Assembly (NCBI GenBank): GCA_965219415.1
Contig: OZ244742.1
Coordinates: forward strand, 1,184,001 to 1,248,000
DNA length: 64,000 bases
Direction: 5' to 3'
Origin: Candidatus Marinacidobacterales bacterium
GTDB taxonomy: Bacteria; Acidobacteriota; Vicinamibacteria; Marinacidobacterales; DATDRI01
A program made the translations under genes and the position numbers. Positions 45,410-55,157 of this stretch are shown piece after piece (the first letter of the stretch is position 1; each line of letters begins with the position of its first letter). Below the pieces are notes generated by a model. It did not search any database and was not told the DNA's origin. It was given only the letters and a program-made list of their open reading frames with translations.

Positions 45410-46732
45410 TTAGAGTGAAGATAGCGCGTCTTCGAGGTTGGGCTCGCCGATCTCTCGAAGCTCGTAGCGAACCCTGAGAGCAGGTTTATCCAGCTTCACC
45501 AAGTGCCGCAGATCCACCGGAGTCGCGAAGAGGACAATCTCGGCCTCCGAGGCGTCGATGGTCGCCTCCAGATCCTGGATCTGCTTCGCTCCATAGCCCA
45601 TCGCCGGCAGGGCCTCGCCCAGATGGGGGTATTTCTCGAAGGTATCGCGGAGTGTGCCGACGGCGTGCGGCCGTGGATCCACCAGCTCCGAAGCGCCCAA
45701 GCGACGGGCGGCTAGCGCAGCGGCCCCGAACGCCATCCCGCCATGCGTGATGGTGGGTCCATCTTCAATCGCCAACACTTTCTTTCCTCGAATCGTCTCT
45801 TCCTCGTCGACGGAGAGCGGCGACGACGCCTCGACCACCATCGCCTTCGGGTTGCTTGCGGCGATGTTTTGTCGCAGCGTTCGAATCCCCTCTTGGCTGG
45901 CGGAGTCCATCTTGTTGATAACTATAACCTGAGCTCTCAGTAAATTGGCCTCTCCGGGATGATACCTCAGCTCGTGCCCGGCACGATGTGGGTCGGCCAC
46001 GACGATCTCGACCGTGGGCCGGTAGAAGGGCAGGTCGTTGTTTCCCCCATCCCAGAGTAAGACGTCACACTCGGCCTCGGCTCGCCTCAAGATATCTTCG
46101 TAGTCGACCCCCGCGTATACGACAGCGCCTTCGGCCAAATGAGGCTCGTACTCCTCCCGTTCCTCGATCGTGCAATCGTGGTGGTCCAGATCTTCGAACG
46201 AAGCAAATCTCTGCAAGCGTTGTTTGACCAGGTCGCCGTACGGCATAGGGTGACGCACCACCACCACCCGCCGACCCTTCTCCACGAGAATACGGCGCAC
46301 TCTTCTAGTGGTTTGACTCTTGCCCGCGCCGGTGCGAACCGCGCAGATCGAGACCACCGGCACCTTCGCGTCGAGCATCGTGCTCCGGGCTCCTAAGAGC
46401 TTGAAGTCCGCATCCGCCGCGATGGTCGTTGAGGCTCGGTGCATGACGTGCTCGTGACTCACATCGCTGTAGGAAAATACCACCTGGTCGACGCTCAACT
46501 TGGGAATGAGTTGGGCAAGGTCGTCTTCGGAGTGAATCGAAATTCCTTGCGGGTACAGAGATCCGGCTAGCTCGGGAGGATAGCGACGGCCTTCGATGTT
46601 CGGAATCTGAGTGGCGGTAAATGCGACGACCTCATATCGGGGGTCGCTCCGATAACGAACGTTGAAATTATGGAAATCGCGTCCGGCGGCCCCCATAATG
46701 AGCACCCGGGTCTTTTTCGTTCCGCTCCCCAT
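45410..46732 (-). CDS. COG2403 P-loop protein (cyclic 2,3-diphosphoglycerate synthase-like / arginine synthetase ArcE-like)
   Basis: IMGAAGRDFHNFN, AVRTGAGKSQT, RHPMPYG, EEREEYEPH, WDGGNND; 2 nt upstream of argF. Confidence 0.85.
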   Translation of the reverse strand: MGSGTKKTRVLIMGAAGRDFHNFNVRYRSDPRYEVVAFTATQIPNIEGRRYPPELAGSLYPQGISIHSEDDLAQLIPKLSVDQVVFSYSDVSHEHVMHRASTTIAADADFKLLGARSTMLDAKVPVVSICAVRTGAGKSQTTRRVRRILVEKGRRVVVVRHPMPYGDLVKQRLQRFASFEDLDHHDCTIEEREEYEPHLAEGAVVYAGVDYEDILRRAEAECDVLLWDGGNNDLPFYRPTVEIVVADPHRAGHELRYHPGEANLLRAQVIVINKMDSASQEGIRTLRQNIAASNPKAMVVEASSPLSVDEEETIRGKKVLAIEDGPTITHGGMAFGAAALAARRLGASELVDPRPHAVGTLRDTFEKYPHLGEALPAMGYGAKQIQDLEATIDASEAEIVLFATPVDLRHLVKLDKPALRVRYELREIGEPNLEDALSSL

Positions 46733-46800
46733 CCGCTCACTTCTTCCTTCCCGTCGGCTATGGCGAGTTTCCAAACAGCGATCGCGACCAAGCGATAGCT

Positions 46801-47849
46801 CTAAGCTTTTGATCGATCGTCCCGGCGAGATATAAGACAGCCGCTTCTGCTTGTCAAGGCCAGGGCGGTGGTCAGCGTTCTTCGGTTCCGCGGCGGAGGC
46901 CACCGTCGAAGAAAAGCGCGACGGTCAGATGTCAGGCGGCCCGAGAGAGAATTGGAATCAGCCCATCCGCCAGCGAGAAACTCGAGCTCGCGGAGCGGAA
47001 CCAACGAAGCTAGATGGTGCAGGACCTCCAGCACCTCTTGTGTTTCCTTGGCGAGATAGTAAGGGACGATCGCCCTCGAAAGAAGCTCCGCCGCCAAGAG
47101 CGACGGGCGGCCTTCATGAACACGGTGACGGTCCCCCTTCTTAAGGAGGAATACCCCCGCTAAAGGATAGGAAGAGGACGACACCACGTCACCCCTCCCC
47201 CGGCCAGGGTGTGCCGTAGGCCCGAAAAGACTCACCCTCACGGCGCAGCGCGATACGCTCATCGCTCAGTAGCTCCAATCCCTCGGCCGCCAACAATCGA
47301 GAGAGGGTAGTCTTGCCATCTCCGGAGTGCCCGGCGAATACGAACGCTTTGCCATCGATGACCGCGCCGCTGGCGTGTAGAAGCAGGCCGTTGGTGTGCG
47401 CCAGGGGGGCCAAGAACAGGAGCTGATCCAACGGGATGAGGCAGCTGAAAACCAGAACGCCCGGCCGGCTCGCTGCTCCACAGTTGACCCCAGTGCGTTT
47501 CATCGAAGACGAGCTGGTAATGCTGAAAACCTGGGTCCGCGGTCGCGTGGACCAACTGGCCACGGTAAGGATGGTAGCACTCGTAGATGGTCCGGCCTTC
47601 TTCTTTCCGTACAAGCCAGTTGAGTCCTGACTCGTAAGCCAGGGCAGCGCTGGTCCGGGGAATCGAGGCCTGCGAATCGGCGGCGATCGTGATCACCGGG
47701 GAGTCGGCGCTGGCGAAGGATCCAAACGGGCCGGGAAGCTCGAGCGGGGCCTTCATGCCCGCCCCCACCGTGATCTCGGCCGCGATCCCGGCAATCGAGA
47801 AACGGCGGTGACCGCCGGGTGGAATCGATAGGTTAGACAGCTTGGGCAA
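46801..47849 (-). pseudogene. HprK-like P-loop kinase (ScmC-like), two single-base frameshifts; true 3' end uncertain
   Basis: LLLHASGAV, GHSGDGKTT, LLSDER, YGTPW; extra bases near 47434 and 47192. Confidence 0.8.
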
Positions 47850-47919
47850 TATATTGAGGGTTCTCAGCGTGATACCGTGACGCCGTTACAGCACGACTTC
47901 CGTCGCCCTTTGGAACGGA

Positions 47920-48099
47920 CTAGCTACCAATATCGAAGCAGGAATTGATGTTGCACGCCCTCGGCACCGATGCTCCGACCTTCATGTCACTCATCGTCTT
48001 GCATCCAGCGGCTAGACTCTCCTCGGGCTTGAGTTCGACGCGTCGGAGCTCCGGCTTGGAATAGGCTTTTCTCTGGTTGCCGTCCTGGTTCTGGTTCAT
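47920..48099 (-). CDS. Putative RiPP precursor peptide, 59 aa
   Basis: MNQNQDGNQRKAYSKPELRRVELKPEESLAAGCKTMSDMKVGASVPRACNINSCFDIGS*; TAATG overlap with the radical SAM stop, GGAGG RBS. Confidence 0.85.
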   Translation of the reverse strand: MNQNQDGNQRKAYSKPELRRVELKPEESLAAGCKTMSDMKVGASVPRACNINSCFDIGS

Positions 48100-49259
48100 T
48101 ACCTACACCCTCCAGTCGACTGAAGCACGGGAAGCAAGACCTCACTCCCCGCTGGTTTCAAACTTCGCGTGTACTGATCGACCGGCCCATCCCAGTAGCC
48201 AAGTTTTTCGGCGCGCCGGTGGCCGACCCCGCAGCTATACTCCACGCGGGCTTCCGTATTTCCCTTTTCCATCTCCGACCAGGCAGGGCACTTGCCGCAG
48301 AGCGAGATCAGATTGCACGAATTACATTGATGATCGGCGCCCCGTATCTGCCGGTAGATGGGTGGAAACATCTCGTCCCAGATCTACCGGAAAGACCTCT
48401 CCTTCAAACTGAACTCTTTGTCGTTTCCGCGAAGCAAAATGCACATGGACATCTTCCCGTATGGGTCGATGTGAAACGTCTGACTGCCGGCACCGCAGGA
48501 GAACAAGCGACTGGAACGGAACTCCCTACGCCCCTCGTTGTAATACTGCTGGTACTCTTCCGCTCGCGACGGAATGGAAAACTCGAGGTCCACCGCTTCC
48601 TGCGGGCTGAGGCGAACGTTGCACGGTGTGAGGGAGCTGTCGAGGTTCGGATTGATCTGAGTGTCCCACTTGAAGAAAACGCCCCGACTCTCGGCGAACT
48701 GAAACATGTCCATGAACTCGTGCTGGTTGGTCTTCAACACGATGGTCTTGAGCTGCAACGGCAGGTCGCGTTCGAGGAGTAGATCCACACCGCGATAGCA
48801 TTTCTCTCTGGCACCCGGAATGCCCGTCACTTTGTCGTAGGTTTCCTCGCTGTAACCGTAGAGAGTTATCTCGATGTTGCTGGGAGGCATGTCGGCGAGT
48901 CGGTCGACGATCTTCTCGGTGAGCATGGTTCCGTTGGTGAAGAGAGTCAGCAAGAAACCCTTCCGAATCGCGTGCTCGTAGATTTCGAAGAAATCGGGAC
49001 GCATGAAGATCTCTCCCCCGGTCAGCAGAAGCCAGAGGGTTCCCGCATCGGCAATCTGATCGAGAACGTCTTTCATCTCCTCGGTGTTGAGGATCTCGGA
49101 CGGCCAGTCCCCGTCTCGGTAGCAGTGGAGGCACCTGAGGTTGCAACGTAGATCCAGTTCCAGCGACCCGGTGATGGGGACGCGATTCTGAAGCCACTTG
49201 CCGACAACATCTTTTCCGAACTGCTCCACGGGGAGGTCCGGAATCTGCGTGCATGCCAT
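48099..49259 (-). pseudogene. Radical SAM/SPASM enzyme with an in-frame TAG at 48384-48386
   Basis: CNLRCLHC, TGGE, TNG; SPASM CGAG...PYGKMSMC then, after TAG in the same frame, CNSC...CGKCPA...SC. Confidence 0.88.
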
Positions 49260-49308
49260 GTGACGGTCTCCTTATTGTGTGGGACAGAATTCAGCCCACG
49301 GCCAAAGG

Positions 49309-49324
49309 AGCAATCTCCGTGCCA
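49309..49324 (-). promoter_or_regulatory. sigma54 (-24/-12) promoter
   Basis: TGGCACGGAGATTGCT, a full match to TGGCACG-N4-TTGCW, 50 nt upstream of the radical SAM ATG. Confidence 0.85.
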
Positions 49325-49459
49325 CGGACCTTCCATGACGCGTGTCCCTAACAGACTTTAAATCATCCAATTAGAGCCGCTTGCTTGGGTATGCCGTTCT
49401 CCAGTGTAGAGAAATCCCCCCATGCCGAGGGCACAGAGCTCCAATTTTTGGGCGAGGGG

Positions 49460-50599
49460 TCAGTTGGCCTGTCGTTCGGCAAGTGCTGCCCTGGCGCGCT
49501 CCACCAGCTCGGCGACGCGGGCCGCTGATGGGTCATTCGGAGCGAGCTTCACGAATGCATCGTACTCTCGAAGGGAATCCTCGATGCGATCCAGGTTCTC
49601 GTACGCTATCGCGAGATTGAGCCTGACGTTGGGTTGCTTGGGCTCCAGAGCCGACGACGCCTCGAGTGGAGACACCGCGTCGGCGAAACGCTGCTCGTGC
49701 ACGAATGCGGCGCCGAGCCCCGCGTGCCCGCGTGGGTCGCTCGGGTTGTCCGTCGCGATGCGCTCAAACACTTCCACCGCTTCGTCCGATCGGCTGGCGT
49801 CAATCAGAGCGGTACCCAATTCCAAGTTGGGTTCCTGGCTGGTTGGAGCCAGTTCGGCCGCGCGTTCGAGCTCGACGATCGCCAAGTCCACCTCACCATT
49901 TCGTCGGTGGATGCGGGCCAAGTCTACTCGCGCCTGCGCGTCGAAGGGTTTGTTCTCAACGAACCAATTCTGGAGCTCACCCGCTTCGGTGAGCTCATCG
50001 GTGTCCACCAGGAGACTTATCAAAGCCTTACGCGTTAGCTCGTCATTGGGCTTGACGCCGATGGCATCGCGAAGACTCGCCTTGGCTCCGCCGATGTCGC
50101 CTAACTTTTGCTTGCACAGCCCAACGAAAAGGTGACCGGTGTGATGGGAAGGCGAAGTGTGGAGCAAGTCCTCGAAGTAACCCAGCGCTTCTTCGTAGTT
50201 GCCGGCACGAAACGCTCCCTTGCCCTTGCGGGTCGCTTCCGCTGCCTCGCCAAACGCTTCCGGCTCGGCTCCCGATTCGGCGGACGCGACCAACGCGTTG
50301 TCTACCAAAGCGTCGTCTGCCAAAGCGTCGTCTACCAGAGCGTCATCCACGGAAAGCGCGTCGCTGGTGTTCGGGTCGGCGGAGGTCCCGCTGGCGAGCC
50401 ATCGGAAGCTCACTACGAGGACACCGAGGACCGCTACCATGACGATGGCTAACTTGACGGCGGCGGGGAGCCCCGCAACACCGCTTCCCCCACCGGCCTT
50501 CCTTTTAGCGCCGGTGACCCGGGGTAGTGGTTCACCACAGCGAACGCAGTCTTCGTACTTGGGTCGATTCCTGACTCCGCAGACCCGACAGATTTTCAT
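49460..50599 (-). CDS. Zinc-ribbon, TM, TPR protein
   Basis: CRVC...CVRC N-terminus, TM helix, DALxD repeats, TPRs. Confidence 0.82.
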   Translation of the reverse strand: MKICRVCGVRNRPKYEDCVRCGEPLPRVTGAKRKAGGGSGVAGLPAAVKLAIVMVAVLGVLVVSFRWLASGTSADPNTSDALSVDDALVDDALADDALVDNALVASAESGAEPEAFGEAAEATRKGKGAFRAGNYEEALGYFEDLLHTSPSHHTGHLFVGLCKQKLGDIGGAKASLRDAIGVKPNDELTRKALISLLVDTDELTEAGELQNWFVENKPFDAQARVDLARIHRRNGEVDLAIVELERAAELAPTSQEPNLELGTALIDASRSDEAVEVFERIATDNPSDPRGHAGLGAAFVHEQRFADAVSPLEASSALEPKQPNVRLNLAIAYENLDRIEDSLREYDAFVKLAPNDPSAARVAELVERARAALAERQAN

Positions 50600-51699
50600 T
50601 AATTGTACACAGGTCCGGTTACCGAACCAGCGGTTCGAAAGGCAAGCCCGGATGCGATATTCCGCGGGTTGACGTTCGAGGAGAACGTCTTGCGGATGAA
50701 GTTCCCATCCGCGGCGGTCGCGCCTTCTGTGGACCCTTGGAGGTTCTGAGACAACGAGCGAGCCGAAACGGTGACGCGAACGCCGTTGACCATCTCGGCG
50801 GCGGTGATGTCCACGGTGACGGTAGGTTGTGGGTCGGGAGGATCATCCTGCTCGTTCGCCACGTCCGTCCCGCCGACCAGGTAGACCACCTGAAAGTCCT
50901 CGAGGTACGCCACCGGACTCCCCTGGGCGGCGAAATTCACCTCCCGCATCAAGCGGTTGGGAGGGGGACCGGATTCCACCATGCTGGGATCAGGTTCAGC
51001 GTAGTATCGGACAACCGAAATCGCAGTTACCATCGTAGGCTGGAACCCCACGGGCACCGCCACCACGTCTCGGGACTGGTACTCGGCAAGGACCGGCCCT
51101 CCTTCGTTACCGGCTGGGGGATCGGGCTCTACCGTGATATCCATCTGGCCAAGTCCGTCCGGTTGCGCGTCCCGCACGTAGCCCATGATCCAGTAACCGC
51201 TAAGAGGTAAATTGTCGTAGAGCACAACCAGATCGCCTATCTCGAGGTCGGACCAGTCGCCCGCCGTCTTGAAGGCGCAACTGGTCAAGTCTCCACCGAA
51301 AGAGGTCGGATCTACTTCGGTAGGCTCCTCCGTTTGGAACGATCCGCCGAGTGAGCCCATGATCACGATCTCATCTGGATCCGCGCCACCGTCTCCTACG
51401 TTCACATCCATAGCCGTCGTGCTAAAAGCGGGAAACTCGGGGGGAAGGCCTGCGCCGGCTTGAATTGCGTCCTTCGTCACGATATCCAGGGCGGCCCGTG
51501 CGCTCTGCTGCATATCCGCTATCTCGGGCTCCCTTTGGAAGGTAGATTGGCCACGACTCAATAGGCCGAAGACCGCGCTCATGACGATCAGCGTGATCAT
51601 CATCGAGACCATCACTTCGATGAGCGTGAATCCCGACGCCGGAGATGCGTTCCCGATCGCCCGGGCCAAAATCTTTTTTTGATGTAGCTTGCTAAACAT
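50599..51699 (-). CDS. Type IV minor pilin, PilW-like
   Basis: SG|FTLIEVMV prepilin motif; MQQSARAALD. Confidence 0.85.
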   Translation of the reverse strand: MFSKLHQKKILARAIGNASPASGFTLIEVMVSMMITLIVMSAVFGLLSRGQSTFQREPEIADMQQSARAALDIVTKDAIQAGAGLPPEFPAFSTTAMDVNVGDGGADPDEIVIMGSLGGSFQTEEPTEVDPTSFGGDLTSCAFKTAGDWSDLEIGDLVVLYDNLPLSGYWIMGYVRDAQPDGLGQMDITVEPDPPAGNEGGPVLAEYQSRDVVAVPVGFQPTMVTAISVVRYYAEPDPSMVESGPPPNRLMREVNFAAQGSPVAYLEDFQVVYLVGGTDVANEQDDPPDPQPTVTVDITAAEMVNGVRVTVSARSLSQNLQGSTEGATAADGNFIRKTFSSNVNPRNIASGLAFRTAGSVTGPVYN

Positions 51700-51826
51700 G
51701 ACCATCACCCCTTCAGCAAATCCCGGCGTCCCCCGGAATGACGTCCGATCGCCATTTTGGGAAGGTACACCAAGGCGGCGAGATTCACGAAGACCGTATG
51801 GGGCTCCGGTCTCCCTCGCCAATGAA

Positions 51827-51843
51827 TGCAATTGCAAAGCCAA
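51827..51843 (-). promoter_or_regulatory. sigma54 promoter candidate
   Basis: TTGGCTTTGCAATTGCA (GG-N10-GC) upstream of the PilW-like gene. Confidence 0.6.
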
Positions 51844-52027
51844 CGTTTCCTTCATCCTTCGAGTCGGCGCCCTCTCGGTTCGCCTCTTTGGAGTCAACAA
51901 TTTGTCCCTATTCTGGGCTATTTCACCCGCAGATTTCCGTGAGAAGACCTGTAGCCACGATCCCCTCCGGACGGGGGGATTTCCCCCTCCCCGAACATAA
52001 AAGTCGACATTTTTCGCGGCGGGCCCA

Positions 52028-54071: not shown

Positions 54072-55157
54072 TTACGAGCTCCCGCCCGACTTCTTTTGCG
54101 CCTGCCGCTCGGCTAGTGCTGACTTCGCACGCGTGAGCAACTTCTCGATCTTCGGAGCCAACGGGTCGTTGGGCGACAGCCGGACGAAGGCTTCGTACTC
54201 GGATAGGGACTCGGATATCTTGTCCAGGTTCTCGTACGCCTGAGCGAGGGCGAGGCGGAACCCGCCATTCTCCTCATCGAGACGCACCGCCTCCTGGAGA
54301 GGCTCCAGTGACTTGGAAAAGTTTCCAGCGGCGAGCTCGGTAACTCCCAGGGCGTGATGCGCCACCGCGGACTCGGGATTCGTCTCCGCCGCATTACGGA
54401 AGGCCACCGCCGCCTCTTCGACCCGGCCCGCGGTTTTCAAGCTCTCACCCAGCTCCAAGCGCGCAGACAGATTCTCCGGAGACTGCGCGAGTACTTCTTG
54501 CATCCCCAAGATGGCCTCCTCCGTTTTCCCTTCGGCTCGCATCGTCCTCGCCAGCTCGACCCTGGCAGTTTGGTCGGTCGGATTCAACTCGAGATACTGT
54601 TGGAGCACCTGTTCCGCCTGGGCGTCTTGCCCAGACCCCCGCAACATGGCCACCAAATAACGCTGAAAGCTCGGGCTCCCCGGAACGAGCTCGAAAGCAG
54701 CCTGCATGGCCTCGGTAGCTGCCTCGGGATCGCCCAAGTTGTGGTAAGCGAGCCCCAGGTACATGTGACCGAAGGGGTTATCCGGGGCTTCGTCGACGAA
54801 CCGCCCTAGGTGATCGACCGCTGCCGCATAATCTCCATTGCGAAACGCTTGCAGGCCCTCTCGCGTCGAGAGCTTTGCGAGGCCGGCGTCAAATGGGCGG
54901 CCCTCAGGAGGAGCCACGCTTGTTACGGCCGCGCTACCCCCTGCTGCCTCACGAGTCGTCGCGGGAGCCGGTCGGGGACTCATCCTCTGCCAGATGACGA
55001 AAATCGCCGCGCCTGCAAGCACGACGACCAGCAAAGGAACGAGGAATCGGAGCGGTGAGGGTTGGAAGTCATGGGCAAACTCCAACGGCTCGGAACAACG
55101 GACGCAGTACTCGAAATCGTCCTTGTTCTTGGCTCCACAATACGGGCAACGTATCAT
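54072..55157 (-). CDS. Zinc-ribbon, TM, TPR protein (paralog of 49460-50599)
   Basis: CPYC...CVRC, TM, TPRs, shared AYENLD.I..SL.EY.AFV.L.PNDP and ALAERQA. Confidence 0.85.
   Translation of the reverse strand: MIRCPYCGAKNKDDFEYCVRCSEPLEFAHDFQPSPLRFLVPLLVVVLAGAAIFVIWQRMSPRPAPATTREAAGGSAAVTSVAPPEGRPFDAGLAKLSTREGLQAFRNGDYAAAVDHLGRFVDEAPDNPFGHMYLGLAYHNLGDPEAATEAMQAAFELVPGSPSFQRYLVAMLRGSGQDAQAEQVLQQYLELNPTDQTARVELARTMRAEGKTEEAILGMQEVLAQSPENLSARLELGESLKTAGRVEEAAVAFRNAAETNPESAVAHHALGVTELAAGNFSKSLEPLQEAVRLDEENGGFRLALAQAYENLDKISESLSEYEAFVRLSPNDPLAPKIEKLLTRAKSALAERQAQKKSGGSS

Follow-up and report, generated by a model that had tools for sequence, protein, structure and literature searches.

The short reading frame studied here probably encodes the precursor of an unnamed family of RRE-dependent RiPPs, on which a PqqD-type protein, a radical SAM (rSAM)/SPASM enzyme and an HPr-kinase-like protein would act, and whose pathway looks disabled or decaying in this genome. 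The gene lies on the minus strand of the 64,000-nucleotide stretch of DNA that was analysed (the window) and, to judge from its homologs and its pattern of substitution, it is a real and widely conserved precursor gene that evolves as coding sequence. The features of the locus are collected in Table 1.

Table 1. Features of the precursor gene and its flanking genes, in window coordinates
Feature	Position	Strand	Details
Terminator-like hairpin	49418..49438	-	Between the upstream TPR gene and the rSAM gene
Radical SAM/SPASM gene	48099..49259	-	386 codons read as one frame; interrupted by TAG
In-frame TAG in the rSAM/SPASM gene	48384-48386	-	...KERSFR*IWDEMF...
Shine-Dalgarno-like GGAGG	48109..48113	-	9 nt 5' of the precursor ATG; read from the sequence
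Precursor gene	47920..48099	-	59 aa and TAG stop
Leader of the precursor			Up to about residue 32; Y13-x-K-P16-x-L18 ... E26-E27 ... G32
Putative core of the precursor			C33-K34-T35, variable loop, C49-x4-C54-x3-G58-S59
HprK-like (Pfam ScmC family) kinase gene	46932..47849	-	Three reading frames; single-base insertions at 47433, 47192 and 46978

The precursor gene translates as MNQNQDGNQRKAYSKPELRRVELKPEESLAAGCKTMSDMKVGASVPRACNINSCFDIGS, followed by TAG. Its ATG (48099-48097) and the stop codon TAA of the preceding ORF have one base in common (TAATG), and overlaps of one or four bases between the corresponding genes are also present in loci L002, from the same genus, and L009. The peptide carries the motif in the form YSKPEL, contains three Cys and ends in GS. 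The 59-codon ORF, the TAATG overlap, the GGAGG, the YxxPxL leader and the three Cys were thus all found as the first-pass annotation had described them; its label "unannotated" holds for this window and fails elsewhere, where homologs have already been called as "hypothetical protein". No model in the local Pfam and NCBIfam collections matched the peptide, its 30 nearest Atlas clusters have no Pfam 38.1 family in common, and a search of the window's genome for a second copy found none. No sigma-70-like promoter was found in 46700-49700, and a fold z-score of -0.37 gave no support for an attenuator hairpin 3' of the peptide gene. The terminator-like hairpin upstream of the rSAM gene, a consensus match only (5 such sites found vs 2.8 expected), may mark where the rSAM-peptide-kinase unit is bounded on its 5' side.

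Conservation of the peptide was established at several depths. In a word-indexed protein search, all 32 scored candidates matched (E 3.5e-29 to 7.1e-7), each 54-63 aa long and either unnamed or listed as "hypothetical protein", and the resulting 33-sequence alignment is invariant at Y13, P16, R20, L23, E26, E27, G32, C33, K34, C49, C54, G58 and S59. When 1.84 billion cluster representatives were searched with a profile, 903 precursor clusters, defined at 50% identity, scored E<=1e-3, and 17 of these E<=1e-10. At the codon level, 12 of the 17 codon differences between the window gene and its same-genus counterpart in L002 are synonymous. In 26 loci compared, P, L and G at their invariant positions are each encoded by four codons and the terminal Ser by AGC, AGT, TCC and TCG, that is, by both AGY and TCN.

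The elements singled out on first inspection, YxKP, GCK and C-x4-C-x3-GS, are largely kept across the family. Among 183 sequences (the 33 first matches plus the best 150 of the 903 representatives), Y..P occurs in 182, CK in all 183 and GCK in 161, and 179 have exactly three Cys counted from CK onward. The C-terminal residue is Ser in 176 and Thr in 4 more, with a GS end in 157, and the distance from Y to Cys1 is exactly 20 residues in 176. C2 and C3 are spaced by 4 in 124 of 179 sequences, C3 is followed by five residues in 159 of 179, and the C1-C2 loop is variable, 10-18 residues long, rich in G, S, A, P and T and low in acidic residues (D 2.7%, E 1.0%). The leader consensus reads Y(-20) x K(-18) P(-17) x L(-15) R R [VI](-12) x L(-10) x x [ED] E(-6) x L(-4) A x G(-1). 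Over its full length, the family can be recognised by Y-x-K-P-x-L ... E-E-x-L-A-x-G-C-K, followed by a loop of variable sequence (G/S/A/P/T) and, at the C-terminus, by C-x4-C-x3-G-S.

The family is present in Acidobacteriota (class Vicinamibacteria) and at least Nitrospirota, a MAG of which supplied one representative. All nine loci in one-genome-per-species contigs come from Acidobacteriota MAGs. In a class-wide sample of Vicinamibacteria, 59 of 301 genomes and 30 of 129 genera hold a match at E<=1e-3, and the distribution is patchy by family (for example, 0/28, 0/43, 27/59 and 11/18 genomes). In this count, as in those of unique loci and PqqD orthologs below, G113 is one row that duplicates the record behind locus L004, and none of the conclusions depends on it. 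An rSAM/SPASM homolog adjoins the peptide in 30/30 unique loci. An HprK-like kinase does so in 29/30 (27 at first and 2 after extension), and none was found in the remaining locus, L064 (9.8 kb).

All-against-all clustering of the ORFs in the 12 longer distant loci revealed a fourth conserved gene of ~100 aa, which is PqqD (PF05402, E 7.7e-13 to 2.5e-20) in 11/11 scanned neighbours. The frequent neighbours in these 12 loci are PqqD (12/12), rSAM (11/12) and the kinase (11/12), and a mixed cluster of large secreted proteins recurs in 8/12. Since an HMM built from these PqqDs places a PqqD beside the cassette in 15/15 loci from other orders of the class, we regard PqqD, rSAM/SPASM, precursor and HprK-like protein as the canonical cassette. 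In the window's order, the cassette is without a protease or exporter and lies, across genera, in conserved synteny between a TPR gene and argF.

Large proteins of secreted type with a Peptidase_C25 (gingipain-like) domain adjoin the cassette in 5 of the 12 distant loci (L041:4693-7200, L042:11693-12328, L043:11327-14404, L047:10200-16235 and L051:486-5606), and L051 also has an ABC-2 permease nearby. It is possible that these are processing or export partners, or that their presence is a coincidence of neighbourhood.

The rSAM/SPASM enzyme is best described from its intact relative in L002 (386 aa), which has a Radical_SAM domain (E 7.1e-21), a SPASM domain over the Pfam cut-off (E 3.8e-5), CxxxCxxC at residues 39-46 and the pattern C-x12-G-x4-C ... 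C-x2-C-x5-C-x2-C ... C; no N-terminal RRE was found in it. The window enzyme, read through its TAG, is 91% identical to it, with Radical_SAM at E 5.3e-22, the SPASM model TIGR04085 at E 0.0011 on a 90-aa tail and CxxxCxxC at residues 39-46. A SPASM domain with auxiliary-cluster Cys, as in sactipeptide and ranthipeptide enzymes, is therefore found in L002, and in the window the TAG cuts this domain: it separates the C-x12-G-x4-C part from the C-x2-C-x5-C-x2-C...C part, and the stopped product of 291 aa would lack five of the seven SPASM Cys. At the TAG site, the enzymes of relatives carry Gln (as in L002), Glu or Arg. The best NCBIfam matches of the L002-type enzyme (AhbD, NirJ2, MftC, StsB, PqqE and others) all lie far below cut-off; the best of them are heme and mycofactocin enzymes rather than sactipeptide or ranthipeptide maturases, which counts against the pathway that we propose.

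For the kinase, the precomputed family PF27840, which the Atlas names ScmC, is present on 115 of 120 homologs among the matches listed, and members are about 295-320 aa long. A 58-sequence kinase profile matched HprK/P (2qmh, 1jb1) at E 5e-4 over positions 150-210, a span that covers GxSGxGKT ... LxxDxR, i.e., the P-loop and the region after it, as expected of an HprK/P-like protein. A single-sequence PDB search with the kinase gave nothing below E 0.48, and a profile-profile comparison of the kinase with the PqqD alignment found no RRE inside it (probability 1.4%). The similarity to HprK is weak in NCBIfam terms, with HprK_rel_A/B at 23-42 bits (cut-off 200) and all kinase matches at 17-42 bits against cut-offs of 125-200, and this also counts against our explanation. 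In the window, tblastn matches to the L002 kinase run through frames +1, +2, +3 and +1.

The first-pass annotation missed that the rSAM here has no RRE and that no PqqD is nearby. The HMM that finds PqqD beside the cassette in other orders finds a cis PqqD in 0/15 unique loci from the order to which the window belongs, among them seven loci of 9.6-12 kb; this order has lost the cis gene, which has moved away from the cassette. The best PqqD homolog of the window's genome, the candidate RRE, is on another contig (C3:1815690-1815953; locus L062:6194-6433) and is 86% identical to the PqqD of a same-genus genome. It ends at a TGA after "...EADV", ~20 residues early, with 79 aa vs about 97-99, and is the sole truncated one among 17 aligned PqqDs. 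Within the order, the ortholog is present in 13/15 peptide-bearing genomes vs 5/40 others, these being related genomes and not independent samples. The trans PqqD may serve another system, because it sits in a conserved, unannotated neighbourhood of its own, without rSAM or kinase; no Pfam or NCBIfam family was found in its two conserved neighbours of ~170-210 aa. The five genomes that carry this PqqD without the peptide likewise argue against our explanation.

A further point missed on first inspection is that both enzyme genes flanking the peptide are disrupted in this genome. Contigs from four runs in four studies (X2, X6, X10 and X12) were compared over 46900-49300; X2 matches the window throughout and may be the run from which the window derives, and X12 does not cover the three kinase insertion sites. 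The TAG is unchanged in 4/4 runs covering 48384-48386, and the peptide ORF is identical in 4/4. The bases at 46978, 47192 and 47433 are present in X2 and missing in X6 and X10, and each of them lengthens a homopolymer of 3-4 nt. Their removal leaves a kinase ORF of 304 aa, 85% identical to the kinase of L002 in an alignment over the full length. We take the TAG to be a true stop because no tRNA with a CUA anticodon is found among the genome's 50 tRNAs and the peptide gene itself ends in TAG. Recoding of TAG was considered and rejected, as none of these 50 tRNAs has a CUA anticodon. Decay was judged likelier than an artefact, and the TAG itself is secure. With the TAG, the three insertions and the shortened PqqD, the pathway here looks disabled or decaying around an intact precursor gene, and the peptide is probably no longer matured in this genome. 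The locus would then be an accessory pathway caught in decay, in which the small precursor gene outlives its enzymes.

We consider it unlikely that the cassette is still active here. This would be so if (i) the kinase insertions were assembly errors, as they could be, and (ii) the TAG gave two assembling polypeptides or allowed low-level readthrough; an ATG at which translation could restart occurs 4 codons past the TAG, and the split rSAM could work as two polypeptides. X6 and X10, from the same species, combine an intact kinase and an identical peptide with the TAG, a state hard to square with an early loss of the pathway through the TAG, and the peptide gene is the same in every run. The insertions fall in short homopolymers. 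Moreover, the L002 orthologs of the window's pilin-like gene (50599-51900) and 497-aa gene (45410-46903), at L002:2237-3506 and L002:7247-8703, run through two or three frames where the window versions are intact, suggesting that assemblies of this kind may carry indel errors. Against this, three indels per 2.4 kb would break nearly all genes, and ~18 neighbouring window genes are intact, with long open frames. A suppressor tRNA is absent, TAG is the stop of the peptide itself, and the 291-aa product is short of most SPASM Cys. Between the window strain and X6, X10 and X12, the rSAM gene past the TAG shows three nonsynonymous and zero synonymous changes, one of them E to G in a conserved C-E-V-G-H stretch, vs zero nonsynonymous and two synonymous changes ahead of it. 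The PqqD ortholog is uniquely truncated, and a second lineage decays alike: in L018 (genome G089), which represents a different genus within the order, the rSAM gene has TAG at L018:1153-1155 where the sister genome L016 has CAG, and a conserved SPASM Cys is replaced by Arg. By these substitutions, L018 is a case of independent decay of the same rSAM gene.

In the pathway that we propose for intact members of the family, four genes form the cassette: a stand-alone PqqD-type RRE, the rSAM/SPASM enzyme, the precursor and a ScmC-family HPr-kinase-like protein. PqqD would bind the YxKPxL strand of the leader and present the peptide to both rSAM and kinase, and the fixed 20-residue spacing would put C33-K34 at the rSAM active site. 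The rSAM/SPASM enzyme would modify the core at the three invariant Cys, its product most likely being thioether-type crosslinks that tie C33-K34 to the C-x4-C-x3-GS end across the loop. The target of the kinase would be the side chain of Ser59 at the C-terminus, in line with what HprK-type kinases phosphorylate on lasso precursors. We infer both the thioether formation and the Ser phosphorylation by analogy with other systems.

The closest precedent comes from phosphorylated lasso peptides. According to PMC6993621, PadeK and PsmK, two kinases of the HprK family, act on lasso precursors by phosphorylating the C-terminal Ser on its side chain. PMC10368454 describes an HprK-like kinase, BsfK, that is inactive on the core alone and needs the leader, and an RRE, BsfB1, that greatly enhances phosphorylation by BsfK. 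Together the two sources supply a direct precedent for a PqqD-type RRE that reads YxxPxL and serves a terminal-Ser HprK-type kinase. The interpretation in the first-pass annotation is partly supported. The three Cys, which it took for crosslink donors, may play that part. It had proposed Ser and Thr, including the terminal Ser, as kinase targets. The terminal Ser is credible, given how nearly universal the Ser and GS ends are; the internal Ser and Thr sit in the variable loop and are not conserved, so only the terminal Ser is supported as a target. Its idea that a lasso-type leader is used by a non-lasso pathway fared better, as Y..P is kept in all but one sequence and the conserved neighbours are only rSAM/SPASM, HprK-like ScmC and PqqD.

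A stronger version of this pathway is one we put forward tentatively: that one PqqD-type RRE and a lasso-like leader may serve two unrelated enzymes, a crosslinking rSAM/SPASM and a Ser-phosphorylating ScmC/HprK kinase, in an undescribed and widespread RiPP class. If so, HprK-type phosphorylation of peptides would for the first time be seen beyond lasso peptides, and the ScmC family would gain its first assigned function. The peptide would be a substrate for a large enzyme family, as ScmC-type proteins and their partner rSAM/SPASM enzymes are so far database-defined only. The 20-residue Y-to-Cys spacing, CK and C-x4-C-x3-GS predict Ser59 phosphorylation and crosslinks at the three Cys, and their confirmation would mean that lasso-type leader recognition is common to a radical-SAM pathway and that phospho-Ser capping extends beyond lasso peptides. 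A literature search, with most subscription journals outside its reach, found nothing on the combination of rSAM and HprK-like kinase or on SynChlorMet, so that a printed account may exist.

SynChlorMet (ScmC, HprK-like; ScmD, PqqD-like; ScmE and ScmF, rSAM/SPASM) is a database-defined, uncharacterised system with the same three protein types. It differs in having two rSAMs per locus vs one here, and the precursor family here is without an NCBIfam model. Scores against its models stay below cut-off: ScmC (TIGR04249) 17-31 bits vs 125, ScmD (TIGR04248) 24-32 vs 100, ScmE 60-94 and ScmF 55-72 vs 400 each. The GeoRSP rSAM and PqqD, HPr-rel-A and lasso PqqD models were likewise all under their cut-offs on the cassette. 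On domain content, the cassette resembles the database-only SynChlorMet, with a leader, RRE and kinase logic as in phosphorylated lasso peptides. The systems of sactipeptides and ranthipeptides (AlbA, StsB, PapB-type) share an RRE-dependent rSAM/SPASM (a dependence presumed here), a Cys-bearing core and the full seven-Cys SPASM pattern seen in our intact relatives. They differ in that the RRE here is a separate protein and not the N-terminus of the enzyme, and in the added kinase; StsB scored 81-92 bits vs 625, AlbA 51-77 vs 850 and PapB 45-56 vs 340.

PqqA/D/E and MftA/B/C share with the cassette a small precursor, a stand-alone PqqD-type chaperone, an rSAM/SPASM enzyme and an invariant C-terminal end of the precursor; they differ in their precursor motifs, and the cassette adds a kinase and lacks downstream tailoring genes. 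This likeness raises the alternative that the product is an intracellular peptide-derived cofactor or signal like PQQ or mycofactocin, with the invariant ends (CK and C-x4-C-x3-GS) being transformed. The PqqD plus rSAM/SPASM architecture resembles that of PqqD/E and MftB/C, one of the best NCBIfam matches is to the mycofactocin rSAM (98-127 bits), the core is less conserved than the leader, and in the window's order the cassette has neither protease nor exporter and keeps its synteny between a housekeeping-type TPR gene and argF. We nevertheless rate this alternative as distinctly improbable. Every match is below cut-off (PqqE 72-91 bits, 381 required; MftC 84-127 bits, 265 required), no partner oxidoreductase was seen at the loci examined, and some distant loci have gingipain-like peptidases or an ABC-2 permease nearby. 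The variable loop, the patchy spread (59/301 genomes) and the repeated gene decay are more like those of an accessory natural product.

Comparison with the paeninodin PadeK, pseudomycoidin PsmK and Bradymonas BsfK/BsfB1 systems brings out what is and is not lasso-like. Common to both are a YxxPxL leader, a PqqD-type RRE, an HprK-family kinase and a Ser at the end of the precursor, where those systems carry the phosphate (PMC6993621, PMC10368454). Different here are a radical SAM/SPASM enzyme in place of the lasso cyclase and B2 peptidase, three invariant Cys with the ring-forming Asp/Glu absent, and a kinase that falls in Pfam ScmC and not in a lasso-kinase model. The window leader has Y13-S-K-P16-E-L18, and L, I or V stands at +5 in 170/179. 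That the peptide is itself a lasso precursor is highly improbable, for all that its leader has the YxxPxL motif and its kinase and C-terminal Ser recall paeninodin-type clusters. Lasso leaders carry the motif at -17 to -12 of the core start (PMC10368454), whereas here it lies at -20 to -15 from Cys1. The Thr (or Ile) of lasso leaders at -2 is not conserved; position -2 from Cys1 is A in 62, V in 36, G in 24 and T in 19 of 179, i.e., A, V or G in 122/179. The loop, with its few acidic residues, lacks the Asp/Glu expected at core positions 7-9, and the cyclase and B2 peptidase are absent from the conserved neighbours; a domain scan of the window ORFs between 45410 and 51900 likewise turned up neither a lasso cyclase nor a lasso peptidase. 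That the peptide is a chance ORF or a non-coding stretch, as its shortness and its lack of Pfam and NCBIfam matches might suggest, has next to no likelihood, being excluded by the 32 homologs, 903 representatives and mostly synonymous substitutions, with no Rfam match in 46500-49800.

Several neighbouring genes and related loci deserve a brief description. The 497-aa ORF between kinase and argF (minus strand) has a P-loop-like stretch, no Pfam family and a weak MobB-like NCBIfam match; it is present in L002 and absent from this position in more distant loci, where argF directly follows the kinase. The window ORFs 49460-50599 and 54072-55157, both on the minus strand, are paralogs whose products start with a zinc-ribbon (C-x2-C ... 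C-x2-C) and also have a membrane segment and TPR repeats, and between the two copies lie pilin-like genes and a sigma-54 activator. Homologs of this pair are also found upstream of the cassette in several loci of the window's order (L002, L003 and L009). L022 (genome G152) has its precursor gene broken across two frames, with the leader plus CKT in one and the C-terminal CFNIGS in the other, and the flanking rSAM and kinase matches are fragmented. Finally, L050:8063-8338 (genome G092, same genus) holds a second, diverged precursor copy (...QECLAAGCKT...CSSLGS) that is absent from the window's genome. This copy is separated from the PqqD gene by 4 kb and adjoins a Wzz/tyrosine-kinase-like gene and a large membrane protein; neither an rSAM nor a ScmC kinase occurs within 8 kb of it.
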